Source: Psammoneis japonica
Taxonomy: Eukaryota
Length of the DNA: 57,883 nt
Direction of reading: 5' to 3'
NCBI GenBank assembly: GCA_008632985.1
Contig: QPGO01000316.1
Span: 1 to 57,883, forward strand
Shown: piece by piece, positions 21,004 to 50,750 of the stretch
Layout of the letters: every line of letters starts with the position of its first letter
How positions within the stretch are numbered: the first letter of the stretch is position 1
The notes under the pieces: generated by a model
Databases searched by the model: none
The model's input: only the letters and a program-made list of their open reading frames with translations
Told to the model about the DNA's origin: nothing
Position numbers and translations under genes: made by a program

Positions 21004-21826
21004 GATATTGTTTACAAGTAAGTTGAGCTAACACAAACAGTTGACACGCCGCAACCTTTTTGCATGCTTTTCTCGATTATTCTCGGCGACGCTCGGCAAC
21101 CGACGACGTCGTGCATGGTTGATCTTTGTCGGTTCGGTATCTTTTCAACATTCATATCTTTCACGTAGAAATCTACAAGTATGACGTCATCATGTCTCAG
21201 ATGGCCGCGCCGCCCGCCCCGCACGCACGCACCAGGCGAGTAAAAAGTAAACCAGGCCTGCGGGGAGCATTGACCACTTGTCTTTCTTTGTGGGTGTGGG
21301 AGTGTGCATGCCGTTGCATGCTACATTGCCTGTACGTACGTACGGTAGGGCCCTACCGCCGGGGCCGGTATTGTATGTGGCGGCTGAGTGGCGTGGCCAC
21401 CGCACCAGTGACGCGGATGACCGTTATATCTGATGTCTCATGCCATTTTTGGGGCTGTAGCGAGGTGCACGGACACTCTTTTTTTTCCAATTTATCGCCA
21501 TAATAGCGCATCGCACAAACTCACTTATTGTTCGATATGTTTTCCCCAATATGACTTTTTCGTGTAGAATTCACGATAAATTATCTTTGTATATAACTGA
21601 ATACATTTTTGAACATGCCACGCCGGCAATCCCAATTTTTTCAGAACTTTCGAGCTCTCCTGAAAAACCGTGCCACGTGCCCGTCGTAGGGAATTTATCG
21701 ATTTTTTAGGATGTCCCCACGACCTCTCATGTCCTCAATGATCATTCTACGAATCCGAAGAGTTCATCTGTGCTAAACAACCCATGCCCTTTCAAAATCC
21801 GAGGGACACACTTTCAAATTCAGACG

Positions 21827-21879
21827 GACTGCCCGACTGCCCGACCCCCCGACCCCCAGACTGCCCGACTGCCGGACCG
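21827..21879 (+). repeat. Short 8-bp tandem repeat (GACTGCCC/GACCCCC units)
   Basis: gactgcccgactgcccgaccccccgacccccagactgcccgactgccggaccg. Confidence 0.75.
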
Positions 21880-22274
21880 ACACGAAACTGCAATCACCAA
21901 CCACTGAGTGGTCAATGAAAAGACGGACAAGCCATGTGCAGGGGTCATGAGTCCCGAAAAACAGGGTTTGGGCCGATTCCTGGTGCAAAACTCACGCAGA
22001 AAATTCGCGCAAAATGTCTTGTTTGTCGTGCTTTTCCCGTGCTTTGCAAAAAACAGGCCACGACCTCAATGAATCGGTTGACACTTTTCGCTCTTGCTTT
22101 TTTATGACAAACACGACGATGTCCACCATTCGGCAAAATTCCAACATTGGAAAATGTTTGCCATGGTGGGACCGCAGGGAAGCATTTGATCAAATTTCTG
22201 AAAATGGAATTTTGAAGTGTTTGCGCACAGAATCGTGCCACTCATGTAAAAGTCATCATGCAAAGTGTCAATGG

Positions 22275-22321
22275 TCTTAGTGGATCGTGTCATTCCTGCT
22301 TGGATGCAGGAATCTCCATCA
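22275..22321 (+). repeat. 5' LTR (47 bp)
   Basis: tcttagtggatcgtgtcattcctgcttggatgcaggaatctccatca; 41/47 identical to 30129-30175. Confidence 0.9.
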
Positions 22322-22331
22322 GGTCATGAGC
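22322..22331 (+). promoter_or_regulatory. Primer-binding site (copia-type GGTTATG.. motif, here GGTCATGAGC)
   Basis: Directly follows the LTR-terminal CA. It differs from the copia GGTTATG consensus by a TA->CA change. Confidence 0.7.
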
Positions 22332-22630
22332 AATGCTCACACAGACGTGCAAGCAAGGCTCCTCTGCCACTGCCGACAACACATTTTCCTCTCATTTCAT
22401 TGTTGACGAAACCGGCAGAAAGCGTTTCCATCGCAAACTTTGCCGCTCTGTTGACGACAACGACGTCTGCGCATCGGATGCTGATTCACGCCACTGCTGT
22501 TTGTTTTTGCGGCTGCTTGCGTGGGTGTCAGCACACCTTCTGCGCACACCGCGATCTCCCTGGGCACATGCCACCGAGAACCGATGCATGCTGCCCCTGC
22601 GTGGTGGAATGACACTGATTTTTATTTTCA

Positions 22631-25600
22631 TTGTCGCTCACCATGGCCCCTGCTGACAGCACCCGTTCGAAAACGGCACCCTCTTGGCGGGACACTCTGT
22701 CGTCACTCCAGGCCGCTGTGTCACCCATGTCAGCCGACGACTCTCCTGTCTCTCCTCCTCCGGCGGAGACTGACCACACTTCTGCTGTTGACGCAATGAC
22801 AGAGGATGCTTCAGTGCCTCACGATGCGCCCACGGTGGAGGACGCAATCAAGGCAGAAGCCACCATTGCGGCGAATGTCACTGCTCCGGAAGCTGATGCG
22901 AGCCCTGAACACATGGAAACTCCTGCCTCTCTCTCGGACCAGCTGCTGCTGCCAGTGCTCCCAACCCTGCCTCCACGCTTGCCACCCACCCTGCCTCCTG
23001 AGTGGCCTCACACGCCTCCAGGCAATCCCCCGCAGCCTGAGGAACCTCCCGATCCCCCACACTTTCCTCCGACATCGTCTCAGGCTCTTCTCCAAAGGTG
23101 TGAGAGCCATCTCAACTCGGCTGTTGCCCGCATCCACAAACGCAAATGGGCACTGGATGTCTCTTCGGAAGAAGTTTCCAGGCTCAAGCGGGAGCTGCGC
23201 GACATCCGTTCAGTCACGAACAATCACGCCTCGGCCATTGCGGACCTCAAACATGCTCGTGATTTCGACCTCCTCCGCACCGAGGTTCAGACCCAAATGA
23301 AAGCAACTGCGGATGAAGCCATCGCTTTGGCTGGTGACGCGGCCAACAAAGCTTTGGCGACACGCGATGCCCAATTCCTGGCAGCTCTCGACAAGAAGAT
23401 TGTTCCGGTTTGCGAAGCCGCGGAAGCAACGACACTCAAACGCCTCCGCACCACATCGACGAATGCACAAAACAACATGGCATCTTTTGTGGTGGACCAA
23501 ACCAGCCGGCTGGAGTCGGCTGCTTCGGAAGCCATCCGCGCTGTGGGTGACCACGTCGGTGCCACCCGCAAAATTTCCAGGCTCGGCTTGAGCACGACAT
23601 TAAACTCCAAACAGATGACCTGGATGTCACCCTCACCAGATTGGACTCCACCAAGAATGCTGCAGAGCAGATTGTCCAAAATGGCTTCACTGTGGCCAGT
23701 GCAATGGCAGCCCTTTTGGAAGACTGTGAAAACGCCACTGCACCCTCGTCTGCAGACACCTTGTCTTCTCCAGCTGTTGGCCTCCAACATGCCACGAAGG
23801 ACCACCTGGCGGACACACTGCGAGATGACTTGGACGGCCTCCAGGCTCAACTGACCCTCCAACAGGACACCGCTCAGGTGCACGCCGGCAAGATCAAACA
23901 CGCCAATGATGCATCTGAAGCTGCTCGGCGTGCGGCAGCTGGCGTTCAGAAGGAACTGGGCAAATGTCGATCGGAGTTCTCAAATCTGACCGTGAACTTG
24001 TCACCTGCCACCCCGGATCCTGGCCCCAAGTTTACGGAACGCATTGCTTCATCATTGGACAACATCGCCAATCATCTCGTGAATTTGCCTGATCCAGCAA
24101 TCTCTCCAGCACCCCCGGCCGTTGGCACCCATCATGCTGCTGCGGGTAAATCAGCCTCCTCTTCGGAATGACACTGTGACTCCAAAACCTTCCGTGAGAC
24201 CCCAGGCCCCTTTCTCCATTCCATGGAACCAAACGACATCGCTCTGTTTCTCAAAGCTGTGCACACACAGTGCACCCAGGCCAATGTTCCCATCCGGGAT
24301 CCGGACACTCTTGCTCGCACTCAGTCCGACTTCTGTAACCCGATGTCAGTGAGCACGTCCCATCGTCAACGGCATGCAATCGAGACATGTTCCAAATTGA
24401 TGCAGGATGATGCACTTCCGGATCACCGACTGTGTGACGGTTGGAAAAAGATGTGCACCGCATCGATGGACGGTTTTGCGATCCTCAATCACCTCGCAGC
24501 TCTTGGATTTCCACCCCTGACAAGCAAAGTGGTTGATGCCCCATCCTGGAAAGGCGACCTTTGTGAGCTTGTGGCAGAATTCACCATTTGCTTCACTGCC
24601 GCGGAAGCCTTACATGCCAAGACGGATCCCACTGCACCCCTGGCCTGCTCAGAACGCCAGAAGTCTCTAAAATTGCTGGAGGCCATGCCGGCTGGCATGT
24701 GTGAACCGGTGCTCCTTCTTAAACACCATCTGAATGAGATTGGGGACTCCGCTCCCCTGCCCCATGATCTCCACCTGGTCTCTCTTGTCACACAGATTGA
24801 CCCCAGGCTCACCGCGAATGCCGACCCGATGGGATCCTTGAGTGCATTCCGCGGCCGACCATCTCGCGGCCGCCAGTCCATTTCGCCAGATCGGCAGCAC
24901 ACCCCGTTCCAGCCCCGGAAGGATCTCATTTGTGATGCATGCGTCGCATGCGGCCACAGTCATTGCAGCTGCACTAACCTGGCCCGCACTGCTTTGCTGT
25001 TGGATTTCATTGAGGTGAATTCGGAGAAAGTTAAGTCCATTGTTTCTAAATGGCAATCTCACAACCAACGCCGCAAGGACTCACCACGCCCGACTGCCCA
25101 TCCGTTTACGGCCGATGTCTCTCATGACATTGCCGACTGTGTGATGGATGAAACGGCCTCGGACCTCCTTTTTGAATCGGGCGCACCTCCAGATTTTCTG
25201 CAAGCCGGCCGCATGCTCCACCATTGTTCGGTGAACGGCTTGCCAATGGCTGCGGGGCAGATGATCGGGACGATTTGTCGTCTCTGCCTTCCGCTGACTC
25301 TCCGATCCCTCCTTCAATCTGTTGCTCATTCGCCTCCAGCATCCCATGCTTTGACCAGCTGCCGGACTGGAGTCATTCAGGCCGCCCTCCCGATCTCGCT
25401 AGCATGGATTCAGATTCTACGACATCGCACTCGATGCCAGACGATGACTCACTTTCCCTGTCGGACGAGTCGTGGGCTGCGGCGGTCGAGGATTTTGCCA
25501 AAGATCCTCAGGCTGCTCTACACTGCTTTGCCACCAAATTTGAGTCAATGGAGTCCGTCGCTCCTCCCACCATTGCGCTTTCCACGGCTCTGGCACTGGA

Positions 25601-28600
25601 ACATGAAACCGACGCGTTCCAGCCCCAGGTGGGACTCCGTGTGACATTGGGCCCGTGGAATTCTACGTGCGAGCTACGCAGTGCGAGAATTTAATCAATG
25701 CACACATTTGTCTTCAACATCAAACAAACGGCCAAGTTTGTGGTGCAATTGTGCCTCTCGCCACTCGACTTTTTTGCAAATGCGCCTGCCCTGCGCGATT
25801 CTTAAGGCATTGTAGAATCGCGCTGTGACAAAAAATGTCAAAAGTTGTTGGACGGATCGCTCAATGAGTGCACCGTAAAATGACACAAAATGTCAAAAAA
25901 GTCACGTAAGAAATCTACGTGCGCGACACACGACGTGATTCAAAAAACTGTCGATGTCACAGTTCAGTGGCACGAGGTCCCACCTAGACCTGGAATGCGT
26001 CAACCGCGTCACTGCCCACCTTTCACTGTGCCAGCATTGGGAACCTCACTCCGGACTCTCCAGTGGAAGTGTCAGGGCAGACGGACACTGGCGCCAATTA
26101 CAGCACCACATCTCAACGACACCTGCTTGCCAACTGCCGCCGTTTTACGAATCCCAAACCTGTGAGCACAGCTTCTGCATCCGACACCACCCTCACGGCA
26201 CTGGGTGCAGGTGTGCATGCCATCCGTGATGTGGATGATCGTGAGCATGACACTCCGATGTTCTGCTGCCCTGGGCTGGGTGAAACCCTGATTTCGCCTG
26301 ATCATCTGCGCAGAGCGTCCAAAGAACAATGCAGCCAATGCCATGCTTCACACTTTCAGGATTCTGGTCACGGCACACTCACGGTGACTCATCGGGAACG
26401 CTCCCTTGTCCGGTCTTTTCCGATGGTGCACGCTAACGGCTTGTGGTTTACACCACGGCTCCGCCCCGATGTGCCTCTGACTGACGGATGCACGGAACTG
26501 GAGGGTGCAATGCGCACGTTGCAGATGCATCCACCGACATTGAGAGACCTCGGATGTGAGTTCGATGTGCCCGATCCTCCCGGCAAGTGCGAACAGCTCG
26601 ACTCGGATGCCCCATCATCCCCTGCACCCATGGACCCCATCCCCGAGCATCCCAGTGTCAGCGAGGACCCGTCCAACGTTCCCGCTCCTCACTTGTCCTC
26701 CCTTCAACGCACTGCCACCAGCAAACTGTGGCACCACCGCCTGGGTCACCCTGGCATGCACCAACTGTCACACCTCCGCTGTCATGCTGCCGGCATCCCA
26801 TCGTCCGCTGATGCCACACCTCATCCCCATCGATCATGCTCCGCATGCAATGACGCCTGGCACAGGCGTGCTCCCATGGGCACCCCACAGGATGATGCGG
26901 ACTTGGAGCCAGCGGCACGTTTCCAGATGGACTGCGGGTGTGTGCGTGCTTCAGGGCCGGACATGAAACCATGCTCGAAGAAACAACGCGAAAAGGACGG
27001 CATTGAGTGCATTGTCCAATCACGGGACGGGTGCAATTTGCACCCACTGGTTGTGGATGCTAAAACTCGGCATGCGTGGGTGTTCCTCACCCCGAGTGAG
27101 GACCCACCGATTGAACTGGTGGACGCTTTCCCAGCTTGGCACAAGTGCACTGCTGGCACATGCACGGTCAGGGCAGATCAAGGTGGGGAACTGGCCCACT
27201 CTGAGGAATTCCGGAAGGTTTGTTTGAAACACGACTGTGTCGTGGAGCCTGCCGGTGTGGATGCCCCGTGGCAGAATGGCAGGGTCGAGATTTTGAATCG
27301 CACTTTCGGCATCATGGTGCGAGCTCTGCTGTGCTCATCGGGTCTCCCGGCCACCTGCTGGGCTGATGCCCTCACTCATGCGGTGTATCTCAAGAACCAG
27401 CTGTGGCACTCGGCCATCGATGTGACTCCACACCAGGCATGGACGGGTGAAGTTCCGGACTTGTCACATCTCCGGGCATTTGGATCTCGCATGTGCGCTC
27501 GGCGTCCTGGGAAACCGGCTGCCAAATTGGACAAACATGCCTTCCACGGTGTCTTTGTTGGACACTCGGCTACGGACGGTGACGTGCGACATGTGGACAC
27601 CACATCCGGATGCGAGAAGTCTACTCCACACGCCACGCATGATGAGGCACACTTCACTCAACCCATTGGACCTCCTGGTCCTCAACTCTTGTTTGATCTT
27701 GGCATCCAACAGGTTGCGCCTCCATCCCCGACTCCCCACAAGCCAGCGGCCCCAGCACCACACCCCCCCTTGTGCTCAACAAAGGCTTGTCTCCACCCCC
27801 CCCGATGAGCCCACTTCAGGGTTTGCCGCTTGGAGAAACTGCGCTGTTCTCCGATGACAACTGTCACACGATGGCTGCTGCTTTTGCATCCAAGGACCCC
27901 GTCACCCCCGATTCTGTTGCTGCTGTTGCGATGTCCTTCGATCCATGCGATGACTCATTTGATGTGATGTTGCCTGGCCGTGGGTCTCGCAAACCTAGAC
28001 TGGGTTTTGAGTTTAACTGTGATCCCCAATGCCATCGCCTGCAACTCCGTCACTGTCGCCCTGGATCACAGGCAGCGCGGATCCCACGATGGCGATCCGA
28101 ACTCCGACGCTCGTGCCTCATCGCAGTCAACACCCAGCCTGTCCACGATTTTACTGACCTCGACCGCGTTTTAGCCACCATCAATCCGGCTGCTCAGGAT
28201 GTTGTGCTCCGCTTTGCCCACGACTGCCGGTCACCGACATTGGATTCTGCGGGATTGCCACAACCATTTTTGGACCAGATCAACCATGTCTGCCATCAGC
28301 TCGACTCCATCCATGACCCTGCTCTTCCTTCATTGTACAAGCTCACACGCCGGAAACTCCAGACGCAGGAAGATTGGCCCGACTGGGAATCGGGTGAATT
28401 CAAACAGCTCGACATGTGCAACAGCCAAGGCATGTTTGGGGATCCCATTCCTGCCCCTCAGGGAGCTGCGGTCTTCCCATGGGTGTGGTCACACTTGGTT
28501 AAGAACGATGCGGCCTGCACCAAGAAGGCCCGTGGAGTCTGCGATGGCAGCCCTAGAGCTGGCTTTGTCCAAACACTGGCCCAGACATGTGCCGCATCTG

Positions 28601-30009
28601 TTGAGCAACCTGGCACTCACCTGTTCTTCACTTTGGCCGCCCTTAAAAACAAACGGGTGTGCGGCACAGATGTCAGCAATGCCTTCACTGAAGCTCCTCC
28701 TCCTGAGCAACGGTTCTACATGAGAGTGGATGAAGTTTTCCAAAACTGGTGGACCAAACACCTGGGTCGCCCTCCCATCCCCGAGGGCTGTGCACTGCCT
28801 GTGCTGAGCGCTCTCCAGGGTCACCCCGAATCTCCCCATTTGTGGAGCATGCATGTGGACAAGATCATCCGTGAACACCTCCATCTTGTCCCAACCACCC
28901 ACGAACCATGCATCTACAGCGGTGCAGTGAACGGCGAAGAGGCGCCATTTCTGCGTCAAGTCGATGATTTCGCCATTGCAACGGACTCGGATGCCACACA
29001 TCAACACATGTGCGACATTGTGGATGAACATCTCACCGGTGGTAAGATTGAACATCAGGGCTTGCTCACCCTGTTTCTTGGTTGTGATGTGGAACAGACA
29101 AAAGACTGCATCCGGCCACACAGCACCTCCTGCATCAAACGGATCTTGGCCAACTGTGCTTTCCTGACCGACGACAACCTCGGCCCGCCTCCCGCCATCC
29201 CGATGCCCGGCGATGCCTCCTGCTCCAAATCCCTTGATGAGGCTCCCACTCCAACTGACTCCAAGGCATCCAAGACCCTCCAACAACAACAGGGTTTCTC
29301 TTGCCGGAAGGCCGTCGGCGAATTGACATGGGCCATGGTCACCACCCGCGTGGATCTCAGCTGCTCGATCACCAAGCTGAGTCAGTTCGGCTCTAATCCT
29401 GGACAACTGCACTGTGAAGGTGTGAAGCATTCTCTCCAGCACCTCAAGCATCACCCCGATTTCGCACTCACATGCTGGCGTCAACAACCTGACACGACGC
29501 TCCCCTGTGCTCCTCCTCCACCTCCGATGACTGTGCCCCATGACCGAGTGCCACTGCCCCCTCAGGCTTCATCTCCTGCCGAGCTTGGCTGCCGACATCC
29601 AACACCGCCGCTCGATTGCGGCATTGCGTTTCTCCCAGCCGGAGCTGCAATCGCATGGAAGACCAGAGTGCAGCCGACTGTGTCAACCTCTTCATCGGAA
29701 GCTGAGTTTGTTGCTGCATCGGACGCCGGAAAAATGGCACTTTGTCTCCGGTCTATCATGGATGAACTGTCGGTCCCCCAGATGCAAGCTACATCAGCAC
29801 ACGAAGACAATGATGCATCCCACAAGATGGCCACCGCAAGCCAACCCACACGCCGCACCCGCCACATTGACATCCGCCATTTCGCTCTTCAAGACTGGGT
29901 CGAACGCGACTCAGTTCGACTGGATCGCATTGACACATCAGCAAATTGCAGTGACATGCTCACCAAGAATGTGGCACGCATCTTGTTTTTCTGCCATTTG
30001 GTGCGTTGA
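22631..30009 (+). pseudogene. Frameshifted, hypermutated gag-pol of the copia element
   Basis: Gag zinc-knuckle-like CDACVACGHSHCSC (~24930); protease DTGAN (~26085); integrase WHHRLGHPG..CSAC, RADQGGE, PWQNGRVE; RT LQGHPES, LRQVDDF; RNase H EAEFVAA, HEDN, RHIDIRHF, DMLTK. Several frameshifts, a MITE insertion and an apparent deletion of the first RNase H Asp motif. Confidence 0.9.
25611..26001. mobile_element. 391-bp MITE, copy 1 (inside the copia; partly hypermutated)
   Basis: TIRs GACGCGTTCCAGCCCCAGGTGGG / CCCACCTAGACCTGGAATGCGTC and 4-bp TSD AACC. Inverted homolog of 50762-51152. Confidence 0.95.
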
Positions 30010-30128
30010 GTGGACGCAACCGTCCCCTTTGTGTGCGGGATGGCAGCAACGACACACCACTGCACTGTTCACTGGAAGAACAGTGCACCCAGACTCACAG
30101 GGGTCACGATTCTCCTGGTGTGGGGGGG

Positions 30129-30175
30129 TCTCAGTGGATCGTGTCATTCCTACTTAGATACAGGGATCTCTATCA
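30129..30175 (+). repeat. 3' LTR (47 bp)
   Basis: tctcagtggatcgtgtcattcctacttagatacagggatctctatca, preceded by GGGGGGG (30122-30128) and followed by the TSD AATGG. Confidence 0.9.
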
Positions 30176-41275: not shown

Positions 41276-41297
41276 GTGTGTGTGTGTGTGTGTGTGT
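41276..41297. repeat. (GT)n microsatellite within the putative 5' LTR remnant
   Basis: About 11 GT units. Confidence 0.9.
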
Positions 41298-41799: not shown

Positions 41800-42425
41800 A
41801 ATCTGCAAGAAAAAAAGTGATTGACCATGTTGATGCTTTTGAACAACAAGTGCCATTCACAAATCATTTTATGTTGCAAGCATCACACCCGGTGGTGCCA
41901 CACTCACAATGGCAAGCAACCAAAGGCCAACTGCAACAACTCCACTCATCTTGCAGAAATGGTGCATTTCAGTGCTGTGATGCACCTCTGTGAGGAATGG
42001 CTTTTCTCAGAAAACAAAACTTCCATCTCACAGTCAGGCCACCCAGAAACAAAAAGAGTTTGCCACTTTTTGGCCAGCCAAGTGCACACACCTCATCAAA
42101 CACTGCATGCTTTCAATGAATGAAAGCCAGTTGTGTCATGGACATGGACCAACCACAAGAGCTTCTTGGCTCCAAAGAAAAAAAAACGAAGCAGCAACAA
42201 TGCAGAGAGACAAGGAGAAGTTGATTGAAACAATCAAAAAGATGAAAGAACAGTGAAGGAGAGTGTCAGCAAAAAAATTAGATTTTGCACAAGAGGAAAG
42301 AACACACAGAAAAAACAAAAGGCAAGACAAGACTGGGGTTCACATGGGAGAAAACTTGAGGCGATGGGCAGGTGAACACAAACAAGACTGGCATCACAGA
42401 GTGTTCAACAAATTCAAGGCATGGG
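41800..42425 (+). pseudogene. Hypermutated copy of the gene at 54860-55516
   Basis: For example gccagttgtgtcatggacatggaccaaccacaagagc (~42126) versus attagttgcgtcgtggacgtggaccgactacaagagc (55081); also gttgattgaaacaatc and ttagattttg..caagaggaa. Contains stops and indels. Confidence 0.85.
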
Positions 42426-43627
42426 CAAAGGTTTGTGAGAATGTTTTTGCATGTTTGAGCAAGGGCTCTCAATTTTGCAGCAGCAAGCCCAAGGAAAGAC
42501 ATGAAAACACAGCAAAGGGGACAAGAAAAGCATGTGCAAGAAGAGAGCAACTGCCTGCTGCACATTGGTGGGCAGGAGCACTTTGGAGCAATGCCAGCAG
42601 CAAACTCCAGTGTCAATGAGCTGTTGTTGTTGCAGCCTCTTGTTGTTTCAATGCCAGCGGCACTTTGCCAGAGCTGAGATGGCCCAGCTTCTGCCCCACC
42701 CACTCTTTTGCTTCCAGCGGCCCAGTTCTGGGCTCAGCCACAGCTTTGGGAAGCTCAGCACAGCACTGGGACTCAGGTGGGTGCCCCCAAGCTGTTGGTT
42801 TTAAACTCCCGCCACAAAGTCAGTTGCACCAGCTGCAGCAACAGCAGTTGCAGGGAAGCTTGGGCTCAGTGGACCAACTGTGTGTGATGCCAAAGATTGA
42901 CTTTGGAATCTGGGCTCCACACCAAATGTTCCAATGGAAGCTGACCCAGCACCTCAGCAGCCATTTCCAGCTGGCTCCAAATGTTGTGTCTTCAAACCCA
43001 CATTTCATTTCAAAGCAAACTTCAAAATCTTCTTGACATGGCCACCATGTTCCACATGGAACAACATGATGTGTTTTTTGCAAGTTGTGTGGTGGTGGTG
43101 TGTGGTTGTTTTTGACAACTTCTTTCCACCCAGGGCTGGAAGGCATCTCATTTTTTCCCAGTTGCCCTGCCACCACACCCAAAGGCCCAGATGCAAGGGT
43201 GTGGATTGCAGGTTGTTCTGAAGCCAAAGCAGACAACTGAATGTTTTTATGGAGTGCCACTCCATTTACAAAGACACAGTTCTGAGTCCTTGTTCCAAAG
43301 GCTACAATAGAAAGCCCTAAACCCGAAACGCAACGTTTGCGAGTTTTATTGTTGAGAAAGGCCATTTGTGTTGCTGTGATGGCAGTGTTGAATTCACAGG
43401 TTTAGGTTTACAAGTACTTATCACTGAAAAACAGTTTTTGGTCTCAGCTTCAACTGTATCGATTCAGCCACATTTCCTAATGTGCATCCATAGAACACCA
43501 CCATCCAATCATCTGAGGAAGCTCATTAGCAGTGGCAACCTTTGTTGTCAGTGATAATACAGGCGTGTGTCTAGAGTAGAAAGCTTTATGAATGACATGG
43601 TGGTGTGTGTCTAGAGGAAAGCCTCAG

Positions 43628-45226
43628 CTAGTCCGAGTCACACAAGTCGATCACAATGGCGGGTGCATTGGACTTTGGCGTTACCTTCTTCTCTTCCTTC
43701 TTATGGAGAAACGTTTTGGCAATTTCAATCGCTTCCTCTGGCCGTCCTTCTTCCAGAGCTTTCACTGCATCTTGATTTGCCGAAGCGGGAATGTAGTCTG
43801 CAGATGATGTAGAAGAGACAGGAGGAAGCCTGCATGGCAGACGACACTGCCACTCTCTGCGAGTCGACGCACATGCTGTGGCCAATACGACTCCAATCTC
43901 TACATTCCTGGGCATTTCCCCGCGTATGCCCCACGCCGCCACACTAAAGTTGTGAGAACCAACGTAGACAATACTGACACCTTGATTGCAGGGAGAAAAC
44001 AAAACCTTGGCATGGGAAATGGCATGACAACCCAAATGGGATAAGCCATACTCGGGTGGGTTGGGAGGTGAGTCGAAGAAAATTTGGCGTTTGGCCGCTT
44101 CGGGGATTGTATTCCAGTGTGACTGTGGTATCGCGCGAGTGCGACTTATGAGAGAAATCAAATTCATGGTAAGGGCCGTCTCATGGCTAGGCCACATGCA
44201 ACGAACGCTCTTCAAGACGCTCTCCCACGGCGTGCTCCTTGGTGCTGGTGTATCCTCCCCTTGAAAGGCTCGATGCATCTGCAGAAGAAAGTCGGGTCGG
44301 ATATTCCCAAACGATCCCGCCATGGCATACACGAGCTTTCCGCCCTCTTCCTCTTTCTCAATACTAGCAGCAGTATGAGGACCATCACCATCGCTCTCAC
44401 AGTCAGAGCTCTCATAGTCAGAATGGACACCCAATTCGCAAAGAAAACTGCTGACGACGGATGCCAGTTGACTATAACCACCGCGATCATTAGCATGGCC
44501 AGCATAACCAGCGGAACGAGGAAAGGACATGACCAATCTCGCAGCAGCAGTTGTCATGTCTATACCTGCCAGCAGTGCATCTAGTCTTGACTGAATGATT
44601 CGGTTGTCGGATACGCTTCCGCAGGAGGTTAGATCGTCCAAGAAGGTCGGTAGCGTTTTTCCAAAGCACGATGCTTCCGAACTAAGATTGTCTCGATTTA
44701 AATGAAAGTCTTGTACCCACAAGCAGTCTCGATCGACTTCCCACTGCCCCTGGAAGAGATTACTTCCACATACGACAACACGGAGTCCCAAGTTGCATCG
44801 AAAGAGCAGTAGCTTGCTGTGTAGACAGCCACCCGTATGAGGTTTGCACAGCAGATAGTACCACCGTGAAGATGAAAGGCTTTGTTGTTGTCTCGGAATT
44901 CCCACGAGTTGGGCATCTCCAATCATTCGTGCCTCGGAGTCGGGCCGTCCATCATGGACTACCACTGCGAGTTCCGGAATGTCACCAAAGATTTGTTCGA
45001 GCCAGTCTTTTTCCGGAGCGACAAATGTCGTACAAAGTGCCGAGCTGCAGGCGGGAGGTAGGAGATTCTGTATCGCAACGTGACCGTCCTTGAACTCTTC
45101 TCCCGGATTAAGGCGATTTCGATAGATTGTATTTCCTCGAAAGGTTCCAAAGGCAAGTCCGTGATCGACAGTTTCAGCAGAGTTATAGTCTTCTAGTCGA
45201 CGGCGTTTCGAAACATCAGAAGACAT
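43628..45226 (-). CDS. TDP1: Tyrosyl-DNA phosphodiesterase 1-like protein
   Basis: Two HxK motifs with the TDP1 context: LHSKLLL..RVVVCGSNL and SHAKV..YVGSHNFSVAAWG..NVEIGV. First ATG at 45226. Confidence 0.8.
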   Translation of the reverse strand: MSSDVSKRRRLEDYNSAETVDHGLAFGTFRGNTIYRNRLNPGEEFKDGHVAIQNLLPPACSSALCTTFVAPEKDWLEQIFGDIPELAVVVHDGRPDSEARMIGDAQLVGIPRQQQSLSSSRWYYLLCKPHTGGCLHSKLLLFRCNLGLRVVVCGSNLFQGQWEVDRDCLWVQDFHLNRDNLSSEASCFGKTLPTFLDDLTSCGSVSDNRIIQSRLDALLAGIDMTTAAARLVMSFPRSAGYAGHANDRGGYSQLASVVSSFLCELGVHSDYESSDCESDGDGPHTAASIEKEEEGGKLVYAMAGSFGNIRPDFLLQMHRAFQGEDTPAPRSTPWESVLKSVRCMWPSHETALTMNLISLISRTRAIPQSHWNTIPEAAKRQIFFDSPPNPPEYGLSHLGCHAISHAKVLFSPCNQGVSIVYVGSHNFSVAAWGIRGEMPRNVEIGVVLATACASTRREWQCRLPCRLPPVSSTSSADYIPASANQDAVKALEEGRPEEAIEIAKTFLHKKEEKKVTPKSNAPAIVIDLCDSD

Positions 45227-46321
45227 GATTTTGAGAAAGTTACACCTCGGAGGTGAATGAGGCTGGTATCGTCGTAGTGTCGTTGACAATCCAATATTGA
45301 GCCCCCCTGTTTATTTTTCTATCCTATCCCACCGGCGTGAAATTCTATCCAATAAATGCAAACAGCATGTGCATTACTTCCACGTGCTTCACATTCAGTC
45401 TACTGTAATGGAGAGCGCCATCGTATCTCCATTTTCGTTTCTATCTCGAGCGTTCAGACGTGTCTGTCCTTCTATCCAAGAATCTGTATGTACTTCTACA
45501 GCATTTTAAATATCTTCATTCAGTACTCACGACTCACTCACGACCACCGCAAATCCATCACTTGGACGTGAAAGGTAAGGGATTTGTGATAGACTAGGTC
45601 AATAAAAGCGTGTCAAATGCGACGGTATGGTGAACTGCTTGGTTTCTATGGGATATTGAGTTCTTTTTTGTGGCTTTTTCTCCGAGCTTGTTGCACCATC
45701 GTGAAAAATGGTTACAGCAATCCACCCCTGACGTCTTGGCAAGAAGATTGATTCGCCTCGGAACCGGTAGAGTTCACTACAGAGCAAACAAAGGAAGTCA
45801 CAAAGCATGTCAGGGAACAGCTTCGGGATAAAAGTTCTGCGGACAGCCATAATCTTAGAGAACGCGAGACTATAGTCCCCATTTTGCATTTCCGCGTCGT
45901 GTTGAATTCGTTCATCACGTAAAAACAACAGCATAAGTCATTCAACTAGTCGAGTGCATGAAGCAGGAAGCGGAGATGGTTAACTTCTTGTGTCACAGTC
46001 TGCAACAGACGGCGCCGCCGCTGTCTGCATCTTCAGAAGGCCTCGTGGACAGTGGACTAGGAATGCATGCAAAAAATGTCGCCTTTGAAGTCGACAGCAC
46101 TTCCAGCGCAACAATCACCTTGTACTGTATTATAAATTATGTATTTTAACTCAGAATAATTTTTTTGTTGAGTCTAGCAGCAGCCGCTGTATTTGCCTAT
46201 TCTCCGTGCTGTTTCTGTTGCTCGTTAGATGGAGCCACTTTCCGAGGCCCGATGCTTTTCTGCACTCTGCATGTGTGTAGTGGCGGCTGCATTCGCTCTT
46301 TCTCGGCACTGTGTCTGTCTA

Positions 46322-47443
46322 TTAAATCAACAAAGCCCCCGGGGCTTTCTGTGCTGTGCCACTGGGGTAGTCAAAACTGACTTCTTTCGCCACGTCCTCC
46401 ACGCTGTCCATGGCCTCTTCCATGGTTACCGGCTTTCGTAAGACCATTTGCTGGAAAAAGTACGACATAAGTTCACCGGTGGCTTCCAGCTGGCCCGTCT
46501 TGGTACGAAGCAGATAGAGGATCTGGATAATAATGAATTCGATAAAGCCAAGAAGCGCGAGAGCCACGAAGCCAATGAGATTTCCCAGCTGCATGTCAAA
46601 GAGAACAATCTTGTCTTGGAAACCAGTGTGTAGACCGCGAGCTACCTTGGCATACAATGCCGAGTCACGAGCGTTGCCATTGGAGAGTGCGGCAATCTCT
46701 TGCACTTTTGATGCTCTTGCGATAAGGTCCCATCCACCCGCCATGAGGAGTGCATCTGGAACCGTCCTGTCTTGGAGGGCAACGGAGGGTTTGAACTCGT
46801 CCACACCAGCGACTGGTGCCATTGCGAAAAGGTGCCGAATGTTTGAAAATTCAGCGGCTACGGTGAAACACAGCCCCCCGCCCATGCTGTGCCCAGCGAC
46901 TGCCATGGGGACATTCCTATCGAAGTAAGGCTTGAAGCACTCGTCCCCATCCAACGCCATGCGAATGCATTGAACGGTATCTTGCGAGACGGCACGTTGG
47001 AGGGAATACTGTTTGGCATTCTCCGAGCCTTTTGTGCCAGCCTTATCACGAGCAATCCTGTCGGTTAGTCCCGTCTCCACGGCCACAACAGCTATATCCG
47101 CCGCGTCCGAAACGATCTTGAGCGTCTTGCGGTAGGCTTCGGGATATTGGCTGAAGCCATGCATGAAGAAGACGACACCCTTGGCCTTTTTGCCTTCGGG
47201 GACAAGGAGATCCACGCCCATCTTGTCGTATGACTGGAAGCCTTTGTAGTTCCACTCTCTTTCAATTTCGACCTTCTTGAGAACGATATCATCGTCTTTG
47301 AATGTCAAATCAGGGCAAGTGTTGAACTTGGCGGGTAAAGGCGACACCGCGAGACGGTAGGCTCCTCCCCGGGTGCTGGGCACCACAAAGCCCGAAGCGT
47401 CTTTTACTAGCAGGAGGAAAGCGGCAGTTAGAAGGTGAAACAT
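46322..47443 (-). CDS. Alpha/beta hydrolase (chlorophyllase-like) with signal peptide
   Basis: FFMHGF, GHSMGGG nucleophile elbow, GGWD and GLHTGF. N-terminal MFHLLTAAFLLLVKDASGF. Confidence 0.8.
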   Translation of the reverse strand: MFHLLTAAFLLLVKDASGFVVPSTRGGAYRLAVSPLPAKFNTCPDLTFKDDDIVLKKVEIEREWNYKGFQSYDKMGVDLLVPEGKKAKGVVFFMHGFSQYPEAYRKTLKIVSDAADIAVVAVETGLTDRIARDKAGTKGSENAKQYSLQRAVSQDTVQCIRMALDGDECFKPYFDRNVPMAVAGHSMGGGLCFTVAAEFSNIRHLFAMAPVAGVDEFKPSVALQDRTVPDALLMAGGWDLIARASKVQEIAALSNGNARDSALYAKVARGLHTGFQDKIVLFDMQLGNLIGFVALALLGFIEFIIIQILYLLRTKTGQLEATGELMSYFFQQMVLRKPVTMEEAMDSVEDVAKEVSFDYPSGTAQKAPGALLI

Positions 47444-47689
47444 TCTCTCTCGGATACTCTCTGGTTTTGTTTTGTGTTCGGTTTCTTGGTTCTTACGGCT
47501 TGCGGTGTGCAAGATTTGTGAGTGATCACGTGATCACGCATGCAACATCATGATGTCAATCTGGAAATCTTGTGCGAAGTGCGCTGAAGTCCCGCTTTGA
47601 AAAGCGCTCAGCTGTTTTTTCGCGCGAAGTTTGCTGTCGTCGGTCACGAGTTCCAGTCCCGAGCGTTGCTAGTGTGACGTCATGACTTC

Positions 47690-48500
47690 AACGCGCAGAT
47701 CGTCTGTTCGACTGAGAAGTTTGAGACTTGGCAGCAACAGTGCCTCTTTGCTGATTTGCGTCAATTGTGCACAGTGCTCCGCATCCACACGACCTCCAGG
47801 TTTTTAAGTGATCGCACTGCAGGAGGTAGCTCTTTGGGACCACAACAAAAGCCCAGCAAGCTCTCAGGCGCAAGCAGAAACGTGCTTTGCAAGAAATCTC
47901 GTGTGCAGCGCGACACTCCACACAAGCAGAGAGTTTTCAGCTTGGACAGCACACCAATCTCAACATGAATTTTAGTGAGACCATTGCAGTGTGAAAGGCA
48001 AAGGACTTCCAACTGATGCAAAATCTGCCCCCCCCCACCAGCTCCAGACGGTGACCAAGCGACGAGGCAGGAGATGTGTGCAGCTCCACACTCTGCAAGA
48101 TCAGACACTTCAAACTTCTCAAAAGGAAGACAATCATTTGGCAGCCCCTTGAGACTTTTGCATGAGATGTCAAGCCCAACACTTTGAGACACAAGAGCTG
48201 GTGCAAACACTGTGAGGCAACCACTCAAGACGACTGCTGACATGGCCATCCAGCCCAAAAATGCCCTCAAGCTCGCCACTCGTCCAATCTCACCAGGCAA
48301 CAACTTGGTTGGCCCACAACAATCTGTGAGATTTTGCACTTTGAGTCTTGTCAATCATCTGTTTGCTGGAGGCAATTGCTGGAGATTTGCACAATTCTTC
48401 AAGCTCAACTCTGCCAGCTGGCACAATGTGCCAATCTTGGCTGGCAACTCTTCCCCTTCATGCTCTGGTTCAATTTTAGAGTGAAACCGTGGTGTCTCCT
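47690..48500 (-). pseudogene. Hypermutated LRR gene copy B
   Basis: Degenerate LRRs (LLPGEIGRVASL, LHQLEVLCLSHCNGLTKIHVEIGVLSKLKTLCL, KELPPAVRSLKNLE) homologous to copies A and C. Tyr-free and frameshifted. Confidence 0.85.
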
Positions 48501-50750
48501 CTGACAGCTCTGCAGCTGTGAGGCCCAATGCTTTGCTTCAGCATGTGATCACAACCCCCCCCATGTTTTGCCAAAACACATTTCCAGCCAACCGGTGTCA
48601 TGCCAACGCAAGAAATTCTCAACAACGTTTTGGGGTGACATGCAGAGAGCTGCATTGGTCACAGAGCCACTGAAATTTGCCCCTCGTGCTTTCCCATGTG
48701 TGATGAGAGCACTTCTTGAAAAGTCTCAGCTCTGTTCTCAAACATGCAACACCACAAACAATGCATGCTTGTGGTTCTGCAATCTCACAAGACATTGATT
48801 TGAGGTGTTGGAGACCAACAATGCCTGCATCTTGGGCATTTGTGTTGTGTCTCTAGCGGGGGGTCAAAATCCAGCCAAATCTTCCAAAAATTTTGAGTCA
48901 AATGGGTTAAGTGGGATTCAAGACTCGTGACCAGTGGTGTGATGAAAATGTTTGTTTTTTGTTTTTGACCCTTTCTCAATGCCAACAAGACATTGGATCA
49001 TGATGACATCAACACAACCCATTTCATGGCTGTGCTCTGCTTTCCATTCCATGGCTGGCCTCCTGACAACTGTGGTTGACTTGTGCCGCACAAAGGCAAA
49101 GCAACCCACAAAAACTTGTTGCAAGCAACTCACTCATTTTTCTTTTCAGATTTGACATTTGTGTCTTTGAGGTCAGCAATCCAGAGCACTGGACAAAAGC
49201 AAGGTGTGGAAGCTCAACTCATTTGGTTTTGTCATCCCACAGGATGTTGGCATCTTGGCATCAATGCAATGCTGTCAACATTGTTTGAGTGTTTTTTCTT
49301 TGATCACACACCAAGAATCTTGTGAGCAAACTTCATCCTGTGTGTTTTTTCTTTCCAGCCAGACTCTTGCCAAATCAACAAAATCAAAGTGACTTGAGCC
49401 ATCAGAGTTGCTTCACTGCAGCCTCAAAAATTTCTGGGATCCAAGTTGTTGCTCTGCACACAGGAAAATCTGGGGCCAACATCCTTTGCTTTCTTGAAGA
49501 TCACACCGCCACAGCAGCTCCCTCTCCATCTCACTGGCAGCTCTGACACAAAACCAACCTGATGTGCTCCAGCCACACGTGGACCAAATTGTGCACAAAA
49601 ACGACATTTGCATGACATTCACGCGGTCTCTGACTTGCGATCGAGCTTTCTCCACCAAAAGATGAGGAGCAACGTGTCTCACACCACCACAAATCAGTCA
49701 CCCATTGACCCTTTCTTGCATTTCCACCAGCTTTGACTCAGCAGGTGCCCAAAATCTGGCAAATGGTGAGTTGACACATTGTCTGCATGCAACGTGGTGA
49801 CACCACGAACAGCTGGAGCGGCACATTTGCACACTTCTTGGCTCGCTGCCACTTTGCTGATGGCCCCTTCGCACCCCCACACATGAGGCAGTGCAACAAG
49901 CCTGCTGTTGCAATGGGACTCGAAATGGTGATGTTCATCAGGAAACAGTTGCGCGATGAAGTCCACTGTCGTCATCGGCAACTTCCGTTCAATTTCCATT
50001 TGGCTGCTGGCAATGCATGGCATGGAATGGAGTTGCGCAGTCATTCACCGTGGTGATGGTCTGTGCGCTTGTCCGGAGCGCACTGCGAACCGTCTCAGGC
50101 AAAAAAGAAAAACGCAGCAGTGCGATCAGACATGGGCCATGGGCAGTCAGAACGATGAACGCAAACATTGTTTGATGGTGAACCTGTTGTCGACAGTGAC
50201 GACATGTCATGACAGCGAACGCACTGTGAGGTCATCGTTCAAATGAAACCACGGCACCCCAAAACGAAGACGGGATCGAAGACATCAACACGCTCAGAAG
50301 CCGAAGCAAGGATCATCAGCTCGATGCGCTCTGCGCAAACGTTTTCGCTGTGTTCTCGCTTGGCTTGCGACGATGACGCGCAGCACAGAGACAAGAATGA
50401 AGAGTGTGCATTTGAGCAATGTTCGAACCAATGGCAGAGCACCACTTCCAACCAATGTGCATTTGGCACAAGTTTGATGACGGGATGCTTTCGTGTGAAA
50501 CAAGCTCATCAAAAATGGAAACTCGAATGGTGTCACACAACTGGTCGCACTGTCCTCAACGTTGGATGAAATGAGTTTTCAACAGCTGGAGCAGTTTGGT
50601 TTGGATGGCAAATTTTCGTTTGAAGAATTTGACGGAGGCCGTTTTGCTTCCTTCCAATCCTGAACATTTTTCTTTGTCGCTCAAATGACAAACATCCCAA
50701 ACAACCGCTTGCGCTTCCTGTGGTTGACTCTGAGCCGACTCAGGCTGACC
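47700..50750. other. Hypermutated domain 3 (TpA depleted; CpG also lost in the core ~48100-49600)
   Basis: Few TA. The duplicated upstream motif tgttatcgacagtaacg (54528) reads tgttgtcgacagtgacg here (~50185), and ggcagagtacc (~30667) reads ggcagagcacc (~50433). Confidence 0.85.

Follow-up and report, generated by a model that had tools for sequence, protein, structure and literature searches.

Hypermutation of TpA steps has very recently been described in the chlorarachniophyte alga Bigelowiella natans, where it was measured in mutation-accumulation lines (Mettrop et al., 2026, bioRxiv 10.64898/2026.01.13.699255). Of 231 de novo mutations in two regions of integrated viral DNA, 230 were A-to-G or T-to-C, and these A-to-G and T-to-C mutations are said to lie on TpA without exception. 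The preprint further describes 124 clusters in which TpA is depleted and CpA and TpG are enriched, finds RT and DDE domains enriched in TpA-depleted coding sequences, and proposes an ADAT2-like adenine deaminase as the enzyme. Its Discussion adds that RNA adenosine deaminases favour a 5' U. In dinoflagellates, which belong to the third SAR branch, 5-hydroxymethyluracil (5hmU) made by TET/JBP is reported to be enriched on repeats and to silence transposons, and the paper cites older studies in which thymine replacement favoured the dinucleotides TA and TC (PMC11572971).

The process that we describe here for a diatom resembles fungal RIP in that it hypermutates DNA in place and disables mobile DNA, consists of transitions only, shows a dinucleotide preference and may leak into flanks. 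RIP, however, is a C-to-T process that creates TpA and stop codons, requires duplicated sequence and mutates both copies; the diatom process changes A:T to G:C, destroys TpA along with TAA and TAG stops, and is independent of copy number. With APOBEC3 and ADAR editing of retroelements and viruses in animals it shares clustered transitions and, on our preferred reading, a deaminase that restricts mobile or viral nucleic acid. APOBEC changes C to T (G to A), ADAR acts on double-stranded RNA and reaches the genome only via reverse transcription, and both are strand-biased on retroelements, whereas in the diatom DNA transposons and cellular DNA are affected, on both strands.

The window (the whole 57,883-nucleotide stretch analysed, contig QPGO01000316.1 of Psammoneis japonica) contains three domains nearly devoid of TA, with edges set from TA counts in 250-bp windows and from the positions of individual TA steps (o/e, observed/expected):

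21775 to 30150, unstranded: TA-free domain 1; o/e of TA 0.12, CG 0.78, TG 1.66, CA 1.37; GC 0.53-0.59
about 33800 to 43247, unstranded: TA-free and CpG-free domain 2; o/e of TA 0.02, CG 0.12, TG 1.87, CA 1.86
33800 to 39805, unstranded: left part of domain 2, TA-free and CpG-free, including an N gap at 37367-37542
40721 to 43247, unstranded: right part of domain 2, TA-free and CpG-free, with 3 TA in 2,491 bp
47495 to 50750, unstranded: TA-free domain 3, with 7 TA in 3,191 bp and CpG low in the core only

Inside these domains we counted 69 TA in 20,004 bp (3.45/kb), against 1,445 in 37,703 bp outside (38.3/kb). The Poisson probability of at most 69 where 767 are expected is 7e-233, which bears out the suggestion of an earlier note, based on the letters of this DNA, that three sharply bounded TA-poor domains lie between flanks of normal TA content. 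Per kilobase, TA o/e is 0.00-0.27 at 22-30 kb, 0.00-0.18 at 34-43 kb except 40-41 kb, and 0.00-0.24 at 48-51 kb, and it is 0.34-0.79 in the remaining kilobases of the window. Within the domains TG and CA are raised to o/e values of 1.4-2.5, AT, AA and TT steps are not depleted, and TC o/e is 0.98-1.06. The left edge of domain 1 falls between TA steps at 21774 and 22103 and the right edge between those at 29790 and 30151; 49 TA remain inside it, including 8 within a MITE.

CpG is nearly absent (o/e 0.07-0.4) in domain 2 and at 47.9-49.5 kb, the overlay regions (CG o/e 0.12-0.38), and is kept at o/e 0.8 in domain 1 and at 49.5-50.75 kb. The earlier note mentions neither this CpG loss nor the island of normal TA and CG at 39806-40720. 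Within domain 3 its depletion is confined to the core, about 47920-49500, and the outer segments 47495-47920 and 49500-50750 are TA-free with normal CpG. The first of these, TA-free and CpG-rich, is immediately upstream of a hydrolase ORF that looks intact (46322-47533, minus strand). CpG decay (CG to TG or CA) is a second process that overlies domain 2 and the core of domain 3. Deamination of 5mC at CpG is like the TA loss in affecting a palindromic pyrimidine-purine dinucleotide on both strands with TG and CA as products, but it is unable to remove TA. Because the TA-free state exists without CpG loss (domain 1, 49.5-50.75 kb), TA loss is separable from CpG decay and independent of it.

The direction of change can be read from sequences present both inside and outside the domains:

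22273 to 22324, plus strand: left copy of a 52-bp direct repeat, inside domain 1, with TG or CA at 4 sites that are TA in the right copy
30127 to 30178, plus strand: right copy of the repeat, just outside domain 1, TA steps retained
30514 to 33497, unstranded: unmutated reference copy A of a duplicated block, with LRR gene A, a 182-aa ORF and normal TA and CG
52077 to 55516, unstranded: unmutated reference copy B of the block, with LRR gene B and a 225-aa ORF
41909 to 42379, plus strand: pseudogene copy, in domain 2, of the 225-aa ORF (54839-55516), protein identity 35%
47785 to 48522, minus strand: pseudogene copy of the LRR genes (32194-33414 and 53207-54406), protein identity 40%
50290 to 50748, plus strand: TA-free, low-copy, non-transposon DNA, paralogous to 30514-30976

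When five inside/outside pairs are pooled, 60 TA sites of the outside copies correspond inside to 20 TG, 25 CA, 8 TA and 7 other dinucleotides. Duplicates had been said to carry TA outside and TG or CA inside, and they do so at 45 of 60 sites, compared with 13 of 76 in an outside-outside control pair (50 TA, 7 TG, 6 CA and 13 other). The two reference copies (52077-54421 against 31052-33387) are 80% identical with symmetric substitutions. Facing the 14 TA of 30514-30976, the TA-free paralog has 0 TA, 6 CA and 3 TG, and it keeps 12 of 23 CG. The domain 2 pseudogene carries 4 CA, 2 TG and 1 TA at 7 outside TA sites and 14 CA, 4 TG, 2 CT and 1 CG at 21 outside CG sites; the LRR pseudogene likewise has CA or TG at outside TA and TG or CA at outside CG. 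A read contig joins 22269 straight to 30176, which shows that the host repeat also occurs in copies without the intervening 7.9 kb.

Three non-autonomous DNA transposons give a finer view:

25611 to 26001, plus strand: MITE with TIRs of about 25 bp and the 4-bp target duplication AACC, inserted in a Copia element
50762 to 51152, minus strand: unmutated copy of the same MITE, with 25 TA and the target duplication AGTC
39806 to 40720, plus strand: 915-bp island in domain 2 with a MITE-type terminal repeat and the 4-bp target duplication CATT

The two MITE copies, the youngest pair, are 90.5% identical, or 97.3% when transitions are ignored. Eighteen of the 25 TA of the outside copy (72%) have become TG (11) or CA (7) in the domain 1 copy. 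Transitions are found at 18 of 52 TpA bases (0.35 per base), whereas A/T bases in other contexts show 6 in 171 (0.035) and G/C bases 3 in 172 (Fisher p = 1.4e-8). A-to-G change is thus not found in all contexts, the pattern that the earlier note had equated with plain GC-biased conversion. The family is multi-copy, with a summed contig depth of 34,000-70,000 against about 55 for single-copy DNA. The outside copy starts 11 bp past the last TA-free base of domain 3, so its insertion site is the right edge of that domain. The island, also multi-copy in the reads, holds 74 TA and has normal TA and CG at a GC content of 0.33-0.39. Since TA and CG return precisely at its ends, its insertion postdates the end of mutagenesis in domain 2. 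Insertions therefore differ in how long they were exposed, from the MITE with 72% conversion to the untouched island.

Copia elements make up part of the domains:

24172 to 25641, plus strand: probable Gag part of a Copia element, a look-alike found by language-model search
26006 to 30000, plus strand: Ty1/copia polyprotein (diatom CoDi-like) in two frames, covering residues 44-1376 of homologs of about 1400 aa
38451 to 38998, minus strand: degraded remains of a second Copia polyprotein, matching the C-terminal region of homologs at 27-29% identity

The Gag identity is a probable one and a lead only: the search returned zf-CCHC and Copia-gag clusters, the best from diatoms with a score of 0.92, and this part has no Pfam match. 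Across domain 2 (33602-43398), none of the 49 ORFs tested matched Pfam. Tyr makes up 0.3-0.4% of the domain 1 polyprotein and 3.6% of its homologs. Compared with 40 Copia homologs, 2 of 24 conserved Tyr columns are kept and 8 read Cys, 7 His and 4 Phe, while for other residue types the conserved residue is retained in 47-91% of columns. Crippling of transposons through conserved Tyr codons, as had been proposed, is therefore visible at the 15 of 24 columns that have become Cys or His. A supposed hit on the primer-binding site was not confirmed: the search gave a single match with 1 mismatch, at 49540-49551 (minus strand), where 1.38 are expected by chance. Relatives of the element are not TA-poor to begin with; in 80 of 80 metagenomic Copia relatives, whole-locus TA o/e is at least 0.59 (median 0.76). 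The signature was found in 0 of these 80 loci, and 0 of 240 homologous proteins, among the matches listed, were Tyr-poor, in two samples that both favour intact copies.

Both strands are used about equally within single elements (11 TG and 7 CA in the MITE, 8 Cys and 7 His in the Copia polyprotein) and across domain 1 (738 TG and 794 CA). The change thus runs from A:T to G:C, at TpA, on both strands and in bounded domains, in agreement with the core of the earlier proposal. The process acts on DNA, and on DNA that has no RNA intermediate, since the mutated sequences include a MITE with TIRs and a target duplication, a pair of pseudogenes and flanking DNA of low copy number. Whether a sequence loses TA depends on its position and not on its copy number.

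From our comparison of sequences from one assembly we conclude that three blocks of diatom DNA underwent localised TpA hypermutation, probably by an adenine-deaminating genome defence targeted to silent or foreign DNA. On either strand the A of 5'-TA-3' was changed to G, giving TG or CA until the TA step was nearly extinct. The blocks comprise retrotransposons of the Copia type, a MITE, gene duplicates in decay and some low-copy DNA next to them. The targeting signal may be a mark of silent chromatin or of foreign DNA; it would spread about 0.4-1.3 kb into neighbouring DNA and end within tens of bases. Targeting to silenced chromatin is plausible, although the TA-free, CpG-rich segment beside the hydrolase ORF does not fit easily with a target that is simply silent heterochromatin. 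Enzymatic deamination would convert adenine to hypoxanthine in DNA, which is read as G. As a defence, this would destroy every TA-containing signal as well as codons for Tyr, Ile, Leu and Val. Long false ORFs would arise as TAA and TAG stops are removed.

Thymine chemistry offers an alternative within the same domain-targeted process. A TET/JBP-type dioxygenase would oxidise the T of TpA, to 5hmU or beyond, in silenced transposons, and the modified base would sometimes pair with G, giving T-to-C on either strand. TpA is palindromic, so T-to-C on one strand is indistinguishable from A-to-G on the other, and all TA counts reported here fit thymine modification as well as adenine deamination. Oxidised forms of 5hmU mispair with G; 5hmU opposite A, on the other hand, is only weakly mutagenic. 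We know of no such enzyme or base in diatoms, and a literature search for diatoms with TET/JBP or 5hmU found no link. Dinoflagellate 5hmU likewise marks repeats, in protists that also belong to SAR, and has a reported preference that includes TA (PMC11572971), but it is a base modification serving as an epigenetic mark and is not known to be mutagenic, and its preference covers TC, which is not depleted in our domains. We consider thymine oxidation unlikely, though a serious rival, and, by analogy, would guess at an adenine deaminase as the favoured candidate.

The earlier note had called the process reverse-RIP-like, and a system that senses homology between duplicates and mutates both copies could explain why the domains are repeat-rich and why some members have paralogs in the window. 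However, in each inside/outside pair one copy has been mutated and the other has not (50290-50748 is TA-free and 30514-30976 intact), the MITE copy at 50762-51152 is intact in spite of its multi-copy family, the multi-copy 915-bp transposon is intact inside domain 2, an old 2.4-kb duplicate pair, 80% identical, is intact in both copies, and low-copy flanking DNA is mutated. The repeat-induced reading was abandoned on these grounds as highly improbable.

Slightly less credible still is an artefact in which a modified base was misread in sequencing or assembly and the real DNA is still TA. Modified bases do cause systematic miscalls, and the runs containing the sequence come from one sample, possibly the source of the assembly, so that depth support is not independent. 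Strand-dependent misreading should leave a CA/TG mix at each site and hence short contigs of half depth; instead, contigs of a public run over domain 2 are 469-842 bp long with a depth of 52-59, compared with 54-61 in unique flanks, and other letters amount to 1-2%. These same-sample reads agree with the TG and CA bases. Together with the TA content of the Copia relatives and the restriction of change to TpA, this puts all three checks set out in the earlier note on its side. Each site has one fixed product, normal composition resumes exactly where inserted transposons end, and the N gap indicates that the scaffold is not a raw long-read consensus.

RNA editing, with an ADAR- or ADAT-like enzyme acting on retroelement transcripts and the edits fixed via reverse transcription and reintegration, would suit the Copia elements among the targets and the liking of known RNA adenosine deaminases for a 5' U. 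We find it barely credible, given that in-place mutation has affected a MITE, low-copy DNA between genes and two pseudogenes derived from cellular genes, that strand use is about equal within one element, and that mutation extends about 550 bp to the left beyond the Copia block. Just as hard to credit is the view that the segments came from a foreign source already poor in TA, or that they were shaped by GC-biased gene conversion or by an AT-to-GC bias of a general kind. Domain 1 does have a higher GC content than the flanks (about 0.48), but the excess of change is at TpA only, AT, AA and TT steps persist, Copia relatives have normal TA, and paralogs in the same window record in-place change.

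TpA hypermutation by a DNA-editing defence, our preferred reading, can be set beside the B. natans system (bioRxiv 10.64898/2026.01.13.699255), which makes the earlier note's statement that no such system had been described outdated. In both organisms, the changes are almost exclusively A-to-G and T-to-C, occur at TpA only, yield TpG and CpA and lie in bounded regions of foreign or mobile origin, with long-term TpA depletion, a gain of CpA and TpG, and episodic activity; in neither is homology required, because the target may be single-copy. The hosts differ, a diatom (Stramenopila) here and a chlorarachniophyte (Rhizaria) there, as do the targets, which are inserts of giant viruses or virophages in B. 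natans and, in the diatom, Copia elements, pseudogenes, a MITE and flanking DNA. TpA loss is close to saturation in the diatom (TA o/e 0.02-0.12), while the B. natans NCLDV region stands at 0.45. CpG decay over part of the domains is a diatom feature, and neighbour-base effects are visible in the diatom, whereas the main text of the preprint does not use the words 'context' or 'trinucleotide'. Our evidence is comparative, while mutations were measured de novo in B. natans.

The diatom process thus appears to be of the same kind as B. natans TpA hypermutation, here saturated, on transposons and in a stramenopile. As the preprint reports the same TpA hypermutation, P. japonica would add a new lineage and new targets to a very recently described process. 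The domains would carry the TA to TG/CA footprint of a DNA-editing genome defence, for which there is a single earlier report, from an unrelated alga.

The window is eukaryotic and gene-dense, with few introns; a formate-tetrahydrofolate ligase gene in it (5787-7718) is 75-85% identical to proteins of Nitzschia, Odontella, Chaetoceros, Pseudo-nitzschia, Cyclotella and other diatoms, and the source was accordingly taken to be a diatom. We measured TA depletion from per-kb dinucleotide ratios, counts in 250-bp windows and the positions of single TA dinucleotides. Three blocks that the earlier note had described as nearly free of TA hold 69 TA in 20,004 bp, against 1,445 in 37,703 bp outside them (Poisson P = 7e-233). 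Single TA positions place their edges, resolved to 11 to ~360 bp, as follows.

21775 to between 29790 and 30151: domain 1
~33800 to 43247: domain 2
47495 to 50750: domain 3

Per kilobase, the observed/expected (o/e) ratio of TA is 0.00-0.27 at 22-30 kb, 0.00-0.18 at 34-43 kb (40-41 kb excepted) and 0.00-0.24 at 48-51 kb, and 0.34-0.79 in the rest of the window; in the TA-free blocks, the ratios of TG and CA reach 1.4-2.5. Domains 1 and 2 have ratios of 0.02-0.12 for TA, 1.66-1.87 for TG and 1.37-1.86 for CA, compared with 0.55, 1.16 and 1.15 outside the domains. Low TpA together with high CpA+TpG, the long-term footprint known from Bigelowiella natans, is thus present here. Two features were overlooked in the earlier note: an island of 915 bp in domain 2 (39806-40720) with normal TA and CG, and the near-absence of CpG in domain 2 and at 47.9-49.5 kb.

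Several local features accompany the domains. Domain 1 carries an 8-bp tandem array (GACTGCCC, 6.4 copies, 21827-21877) ~50 bp inside its left edge. The right edge of domain 2 and the end of a tyrosyl-DNA phosphodiesterase (Tdp1-family) gene on the minus strand (43628-45310) are ~380 bp apart, probably by coincidence. At 47495-47920 the sequence is TA-free, has the highest CpG density of its surroundings and lies directly upstream of the following ORF, so that the promoter region of this gene may sit inside the hypermutated zone.

46322-47533, minus strand: alpha/beta-hydrolase ORF, apparently intact

The TG and CA bases have support from reads. The runs listed for the stretch are three, none of them RNA, and all come from one sample, which is perhaps the source of the assembly, so this support is not independent. 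Contigs of 469-842 bp from one coded run (X1) cover domain 2 at a depth of 52-59, compared with 54-61 in the unique flanks, and this coverage supports the bases as genuine, against strand-dependent misreading of a modified base. These contigs differ from the window in 1-2% of letters; among 40 differences listed (with 694 further), TA is exchanged for TG/CA or the reverse in 8, and CG likewise in 14, in a set that mixes paralogs and alleles. A run of 176 N lies inside domain 2 (37367-37542), and reads seem to be cut on either side of it (37336-37366 and 37543-37575), indicating that the assembly was scaffolded there.

The domains are bounded regions of mobile DNA that contain Copia elements, a MITE and pseudogenes. 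The Copia element of domain 1 has the Pfam domains gag_pre-integrs, SH3_retrovirus and a weak RVT_2, in Copia order, and by tblastn it matches residues 44-1376 of homologs ~1400 aa long; the named relatives are from diatoms. A look-alike search places a probable Gag ORF at 24172-25641. LTRs were not found, even with transition-tolerant alignment, and solely a 52-bp repeat scored above shuffled controls. The mutated primer-binding site proposed in the earlier note was not confirmed, with one 1-mismatch match where 1.38 are expected, which is chance level; a search for tRNA genes found none.

This Copia element is interrupted by a 391-bp element (25611-26001, plus strand), a second copy of which lies outside the domains (50762-51152, minus strand). 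Its ends carry terminal inverted repeats of ~25 bp and a 4-bp target duplication (AACC at the inside copy, AGTC at the outside copy), which identify it as a MITE-type DNA transposon, and its summed contig depth of 34,000-70,000, compared with ~55 for single-copy DNA, indicates a multi-copy family. The island in domain 2, a non-autonomous DNA transposon, has a terminal repeat of the MITE type, a 4-bp duplication (CATT) and a depth of ~3,000, and is also multi-copy. Both MITE copies and the island have a terminal inverted repeat core of GTTCCAG, 2-3 variable bases and TAGGTG. Summed read depth suggests that the 391-bp form numbers hundreds to ~1,000 copies and the 915-bp form tens. The further contents are listed here.

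22273-22324 and 30127-30178: 52-bp direct repeat flanking a 7.9-kb Copia block
38451-38998: decayed second Copia fragment, domain 2
41909-42379: pseudogene of a 225-aa ORF (54839-55516), domain 2
47785-48522, minus strand: pseudogene of LRR genes, domain 3
50290-50748: low-copy DNA, domain 3, with an intact paralog at 30514-30976
30514-33497, 50145-54564, 47711-48522 and 41909-42379: copies and fragments of a block made up of a 182-aa ORF, an LRR gene and the 225-aa ORF

The last of these exists in two intact copies ~21 kb apart that are 80% identical, and together with older fragments buried in the TA-free domains they indicate that the region has been duplicated repeatedly. Pfam searches of ORFs of at least 80 aa (67 from domains 2 and 3 and 9 picked from the 49 of domain 1) returned one weak LRR_4 match, to the pseudogene at 47764-48354, and recognised no viral genes in the domains. 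Domain 1 (21700-30200) has its 49 such ORFs distributed over both strands, some of more than 350 aa and antisense to Copia. Because TAA and TAG stops are lost in TA-free DNA, many long, overlapping and spurious ORFs arise on both strands; gene callers would over-predict in such DNA, where Pfam mostly fails.

Comparison of the window with itself yielded five independent pairs of duplicates with one member inside and one outside the domains, and one control pair with both members outside. As the earlier note had proposed, the inside copies have TG or CA where the outside copies have TA: 60 outside TA sites correspond to 20 TG, 25 CA, 8 TA and 7 other dinucleotides, while the 76 TA sites of the control pair correspond to 50 TA, 7 TG, 6 CA and 13 other. 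The two MITE copies are 90.5% identical (97.3% with transitions ignored), and A>G and T>C changes account for 24 of the 34 differences between them. Transitions affect 18 of 52 TpA bases, compared with 6 of 171 other A/T and 3 of 172 G/C bases (p = 1.4e-8). Three of the six changes away from TpA are TG or CA outside and CG inside, and could equally be explained by CpG decay in the outside copy. GC-biased gene conversion is rejected, given the ten-fold excess of change at TpA over other A/T bases, which answers the question of whether A-to-G change occurs in all contexts, and given that AT, AA and TT steps are undepleted.

Since a comparison of two copies has no direction, we used Copia homologs as an outgroup, aligning the polyprotein at 26006-30000 with 40 of them (report handles P0122-P0161) and considering columns in which at least 70% of homologs agree. 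Tyrosine is encoded by TAY, for which the change predicts precisely two products, Cys (TGY) and His (CAY). The destruction of conserved Tyr codons was confirmed: Tyr is retained in 2 of 24 columns of this alignment (8 Cys, 7 His, 4 Phe), compared with 47-91% of columns for the other residue types, and it makes up 0.3-0.4% of the window's Copia protein versus 3.6% of the homologs. The near balance of 8 Cys and 7 His shows that both strands were used.

The relatives of this element were not already poor in TA. In all of the 80 metagenomic Copia loci compared (the best of 202 confirmed), whole-locus TA o/e is at least 0.59 (median 0.76). No 1-kb window with a TA o/e below 0.15 was found in these best 80 of 202 loci (minimum 0.33), nor was a Tyr content below 1.5% found in 120 long and 120 near-length Copia homologs among those listed; both the locus and the protein samples favour intact copies, so absence of the signature elsewhere is not implied.

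Loss of TA is separable from CpG decay. CG o/e is 0.07-0.4 in domain 2 and at 47.9-49.5 kb, and the signature of 5mC-driven CpG decay, with a CG o/e of 0.12-0.38, is confined to these two regions. There, CpG decay accounts for the loss of CpG alone, and it is rejected as the cause of TA loss. CpG is retained in domain 1, at 47.5-47.9 kb and at 49.5-50.75 kb; domain 1 and 49.5-50.75 kb have thus lost TA and kept CpG. In a first pair of duplicates, 23 outside CG correspond inside to 10 TG and 6 CA, and in a second pair 21 correspond to 14 CA and 4 TG. In the MITE pair, 18 of 25 TA differ, versus 3 of 29 CG.

The TA dinucleotides that survive inside the domains are not a random sample. Relative to outside, survival by palindromic context rises from 0 for ATAT through 0.016 (GTAC) and 0.195 (CTAG) to 0.49 for TTAA (chi-square p = 5e-13), and the pattern also differs from that expected for new TA arising out of CA/TG (p = 3e-7). 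This suggests that TAT/ATA may be the most sensitive and TAA/TTA the least. The edited fractions at paired sites, compared to see whether the base 3' of TA sets the strand that is edited, are 0.52 for TAT, 0.42 for TAC, 0.37 for TAG and 0.43 for TAA; these sites are too few and too saturated to confirm the preference from the product chosen, so the neighbour effect is read solely from which TA survive. Protection of TA by an adjacent CpG (TACG/CGTA) was not significant (10 of 49 in domain 1 versus 163 of 1,351 outside, p = 0.12).

These observations support the core of the earlier note, a mutator acting on DNA at TpA, on both strands, confined to domains and crippling transposons. Action on DNA follows from conversion in place, which has affected low-copy flanks and pseudogenes of cellular genes as well as a DNA transposon. 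ADAR/ADAT editing of RNA, fixed by retrotransposition, is rejected since the MITE, pseudogenes and flanking DNA are mutated, and on both strands.

The analogy to RIP fails on triggering. Fungal RIP changes C to T (G to A) and creates TpA, whereas here TpA is destroyed; RIP is triggered by duplication and mutates both copies, whereas here the low-copy DNA of domain 3 is mutated and its paralog is intact. Both copies of a 2.4-kb duplicate, 80% identical, are unmutated, and the outside copy of the multi-copy MITE is intact 11 bp beyond domain 3. Multi-copy elements are intact when they lie outside the domains or were inserted late into one. As judged from these sequence comparisons, duplication is not required and the process is not homology-triggered.

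The boundaries differ in how closely they follow mobile DNA. On the left of domain 1, TA loss takes in a further ~550 bp of a multi-copy host repeat beyond the 7.9-kb Copia block, and on the right it ends within ~25 bp. Of the flanking 52-bp repeat, the left copy has 4 TA sites converted and the right copy has none; this repeat is far too long to be a Copia target duplication. One contig of the reads, at a depth of 1,406, passes straight from 22269 to 30176, indicating that other copies of the surrounding multi-copy repeat exist without the Copia block. The right edge of domain 3 (50750-50762) lies at most 11 bp from the insertion site of the intact MITE; the DNA to the left of this MITE is TA-free and that to the right is normal, although in the paralog (30976/30985) the corresponding sequences adjoin each other. 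The MITE at this edge may be a barrier or may lie there by coincidence.

Insertions into the domains also give relative timing. The MITE inside domain 1 is 72% converted, so activity in domain 1 went on after its insertion. The island is unconverted, with normal composition starting and stopping at its terminal repeats, so activity in domain 2 was over before it inserted. Such differing exposure fits the episodic activity described in the text of the Bigelowiella natans report.

That report is the one description of TpA-specific DNA hypermutation that we found in the full-text literature (Mettrop et al., bioRxiv 10.64898/2026.01.13.699255), and the statement of the earlier note that no description was known is overtaken by it, since the process has meanwhile been described in another lineage. 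According to the text of this preprint, an integrated giant-virus region and a virophage region together accounted for 231 of 302 nuclear point mutations in mutation-accumulation lines, and 230 of the 231 were A-to-G or T-to-C, all on TpA. As described there, rates were ~1000-fold over background, in some lines only, 124 genomic clusters showed depletion of TpA along with enrichment in CpA+TpG, and RT and DDE domains were enriched in TpA-depleted CDS; the authors proposed an ADAT2-like adenine deaminase. On this description, B. natans and the domains have in common near-exclusive A-to-G/T-to-C change, restriction to TpA, bounded mobile or foreign DNA and no need for duplication. New here are the host lineage and the targets, the finding that the process depends neither on repeats nor on CpG decay, and the boundaries, relative timing and neighbour-base effects. 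The main text of the preprint makes no mention of diatoms or of neighbour-base context, and we found no report of the signature in diatoms in the full-text literature.

As to chemistry, the simplest route would be for adenine in DNA to be deaminated to hypoxanthine, and it is the one we favour. TpA is palindromic, and T-to-C on one strand is A-to-G on the other; modification of thymine at TpA, leading to T-to-C, therefore fits equally well. A precedent is described for dinoflagellates, in which a TET/JBP enzyme places 5hmU on repeat DNA, silencing transposons, and earlier work cited in the same text found thymine replaced preferentially in the dinucleotides TA and TC (PMC11572971). No paper linking diatoms with TET/JBP or 5hmU was found in the literature. 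Against the thymine route, TC is undepleted in the domains, and 5hmU opposite A is barely mutagenic.

The deaminase genes in the window are not candidates for the enzyme.

55607-57138, minus strand: a tandem pair of dCMP deaminase genes

The first gene is intact, with human DCTD as its best solved relative (2w4l, E = 2e-69), and the second is in two frames (56526-56822 and 56770-57138), owing to either an intron or a frameshift. Given this best relative, the pair is rejected as the culprit: these are ordinary dCMP deaminases of nucleotide metabolism, not nucleic-acid editors.

More broadly, we tentatively suggest, at somewhat less than an even chance, that conversion of TpA to TpG/CpA, rather than being peculiar to one chlorarachniophyte, is a widespread, possibly ancestral SAR defence of the genome, in which an enzyme acting on dsDNA is sent to newly silenced mobile or foreign DNA. 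The enzyme would either deaminate adenine, as a natural adenine deaminase, or modify thymine. Its action would be independent of CpG methylation and quicker than CpG decay, and would spread a few hundred bases into neighbours and halt at defined boundaries. Its neighbour preference (TAT/ATA most sensitive, TTAA most resistant) could identify it.

The saturated footprint in a diatom extends the process to a second lineage, one that is ecologically dominant, with transposons among its targets beyond integrated viruses, and shows that it depends neither on repeat number nor on CpG decay. It also adds testable details, namely neighbour-base effects, boundaries at the scale of base pairs and insertions of differing exposure time. 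If the reading is true, diatoms, which are genetically tractable, would be a system for finding a natural A:T-to-G:C DNA editor, and should the chemistry be deamination of adenine in chromosomal DNA, this editor would be a natural counterpart of the engineered adenine base editors.
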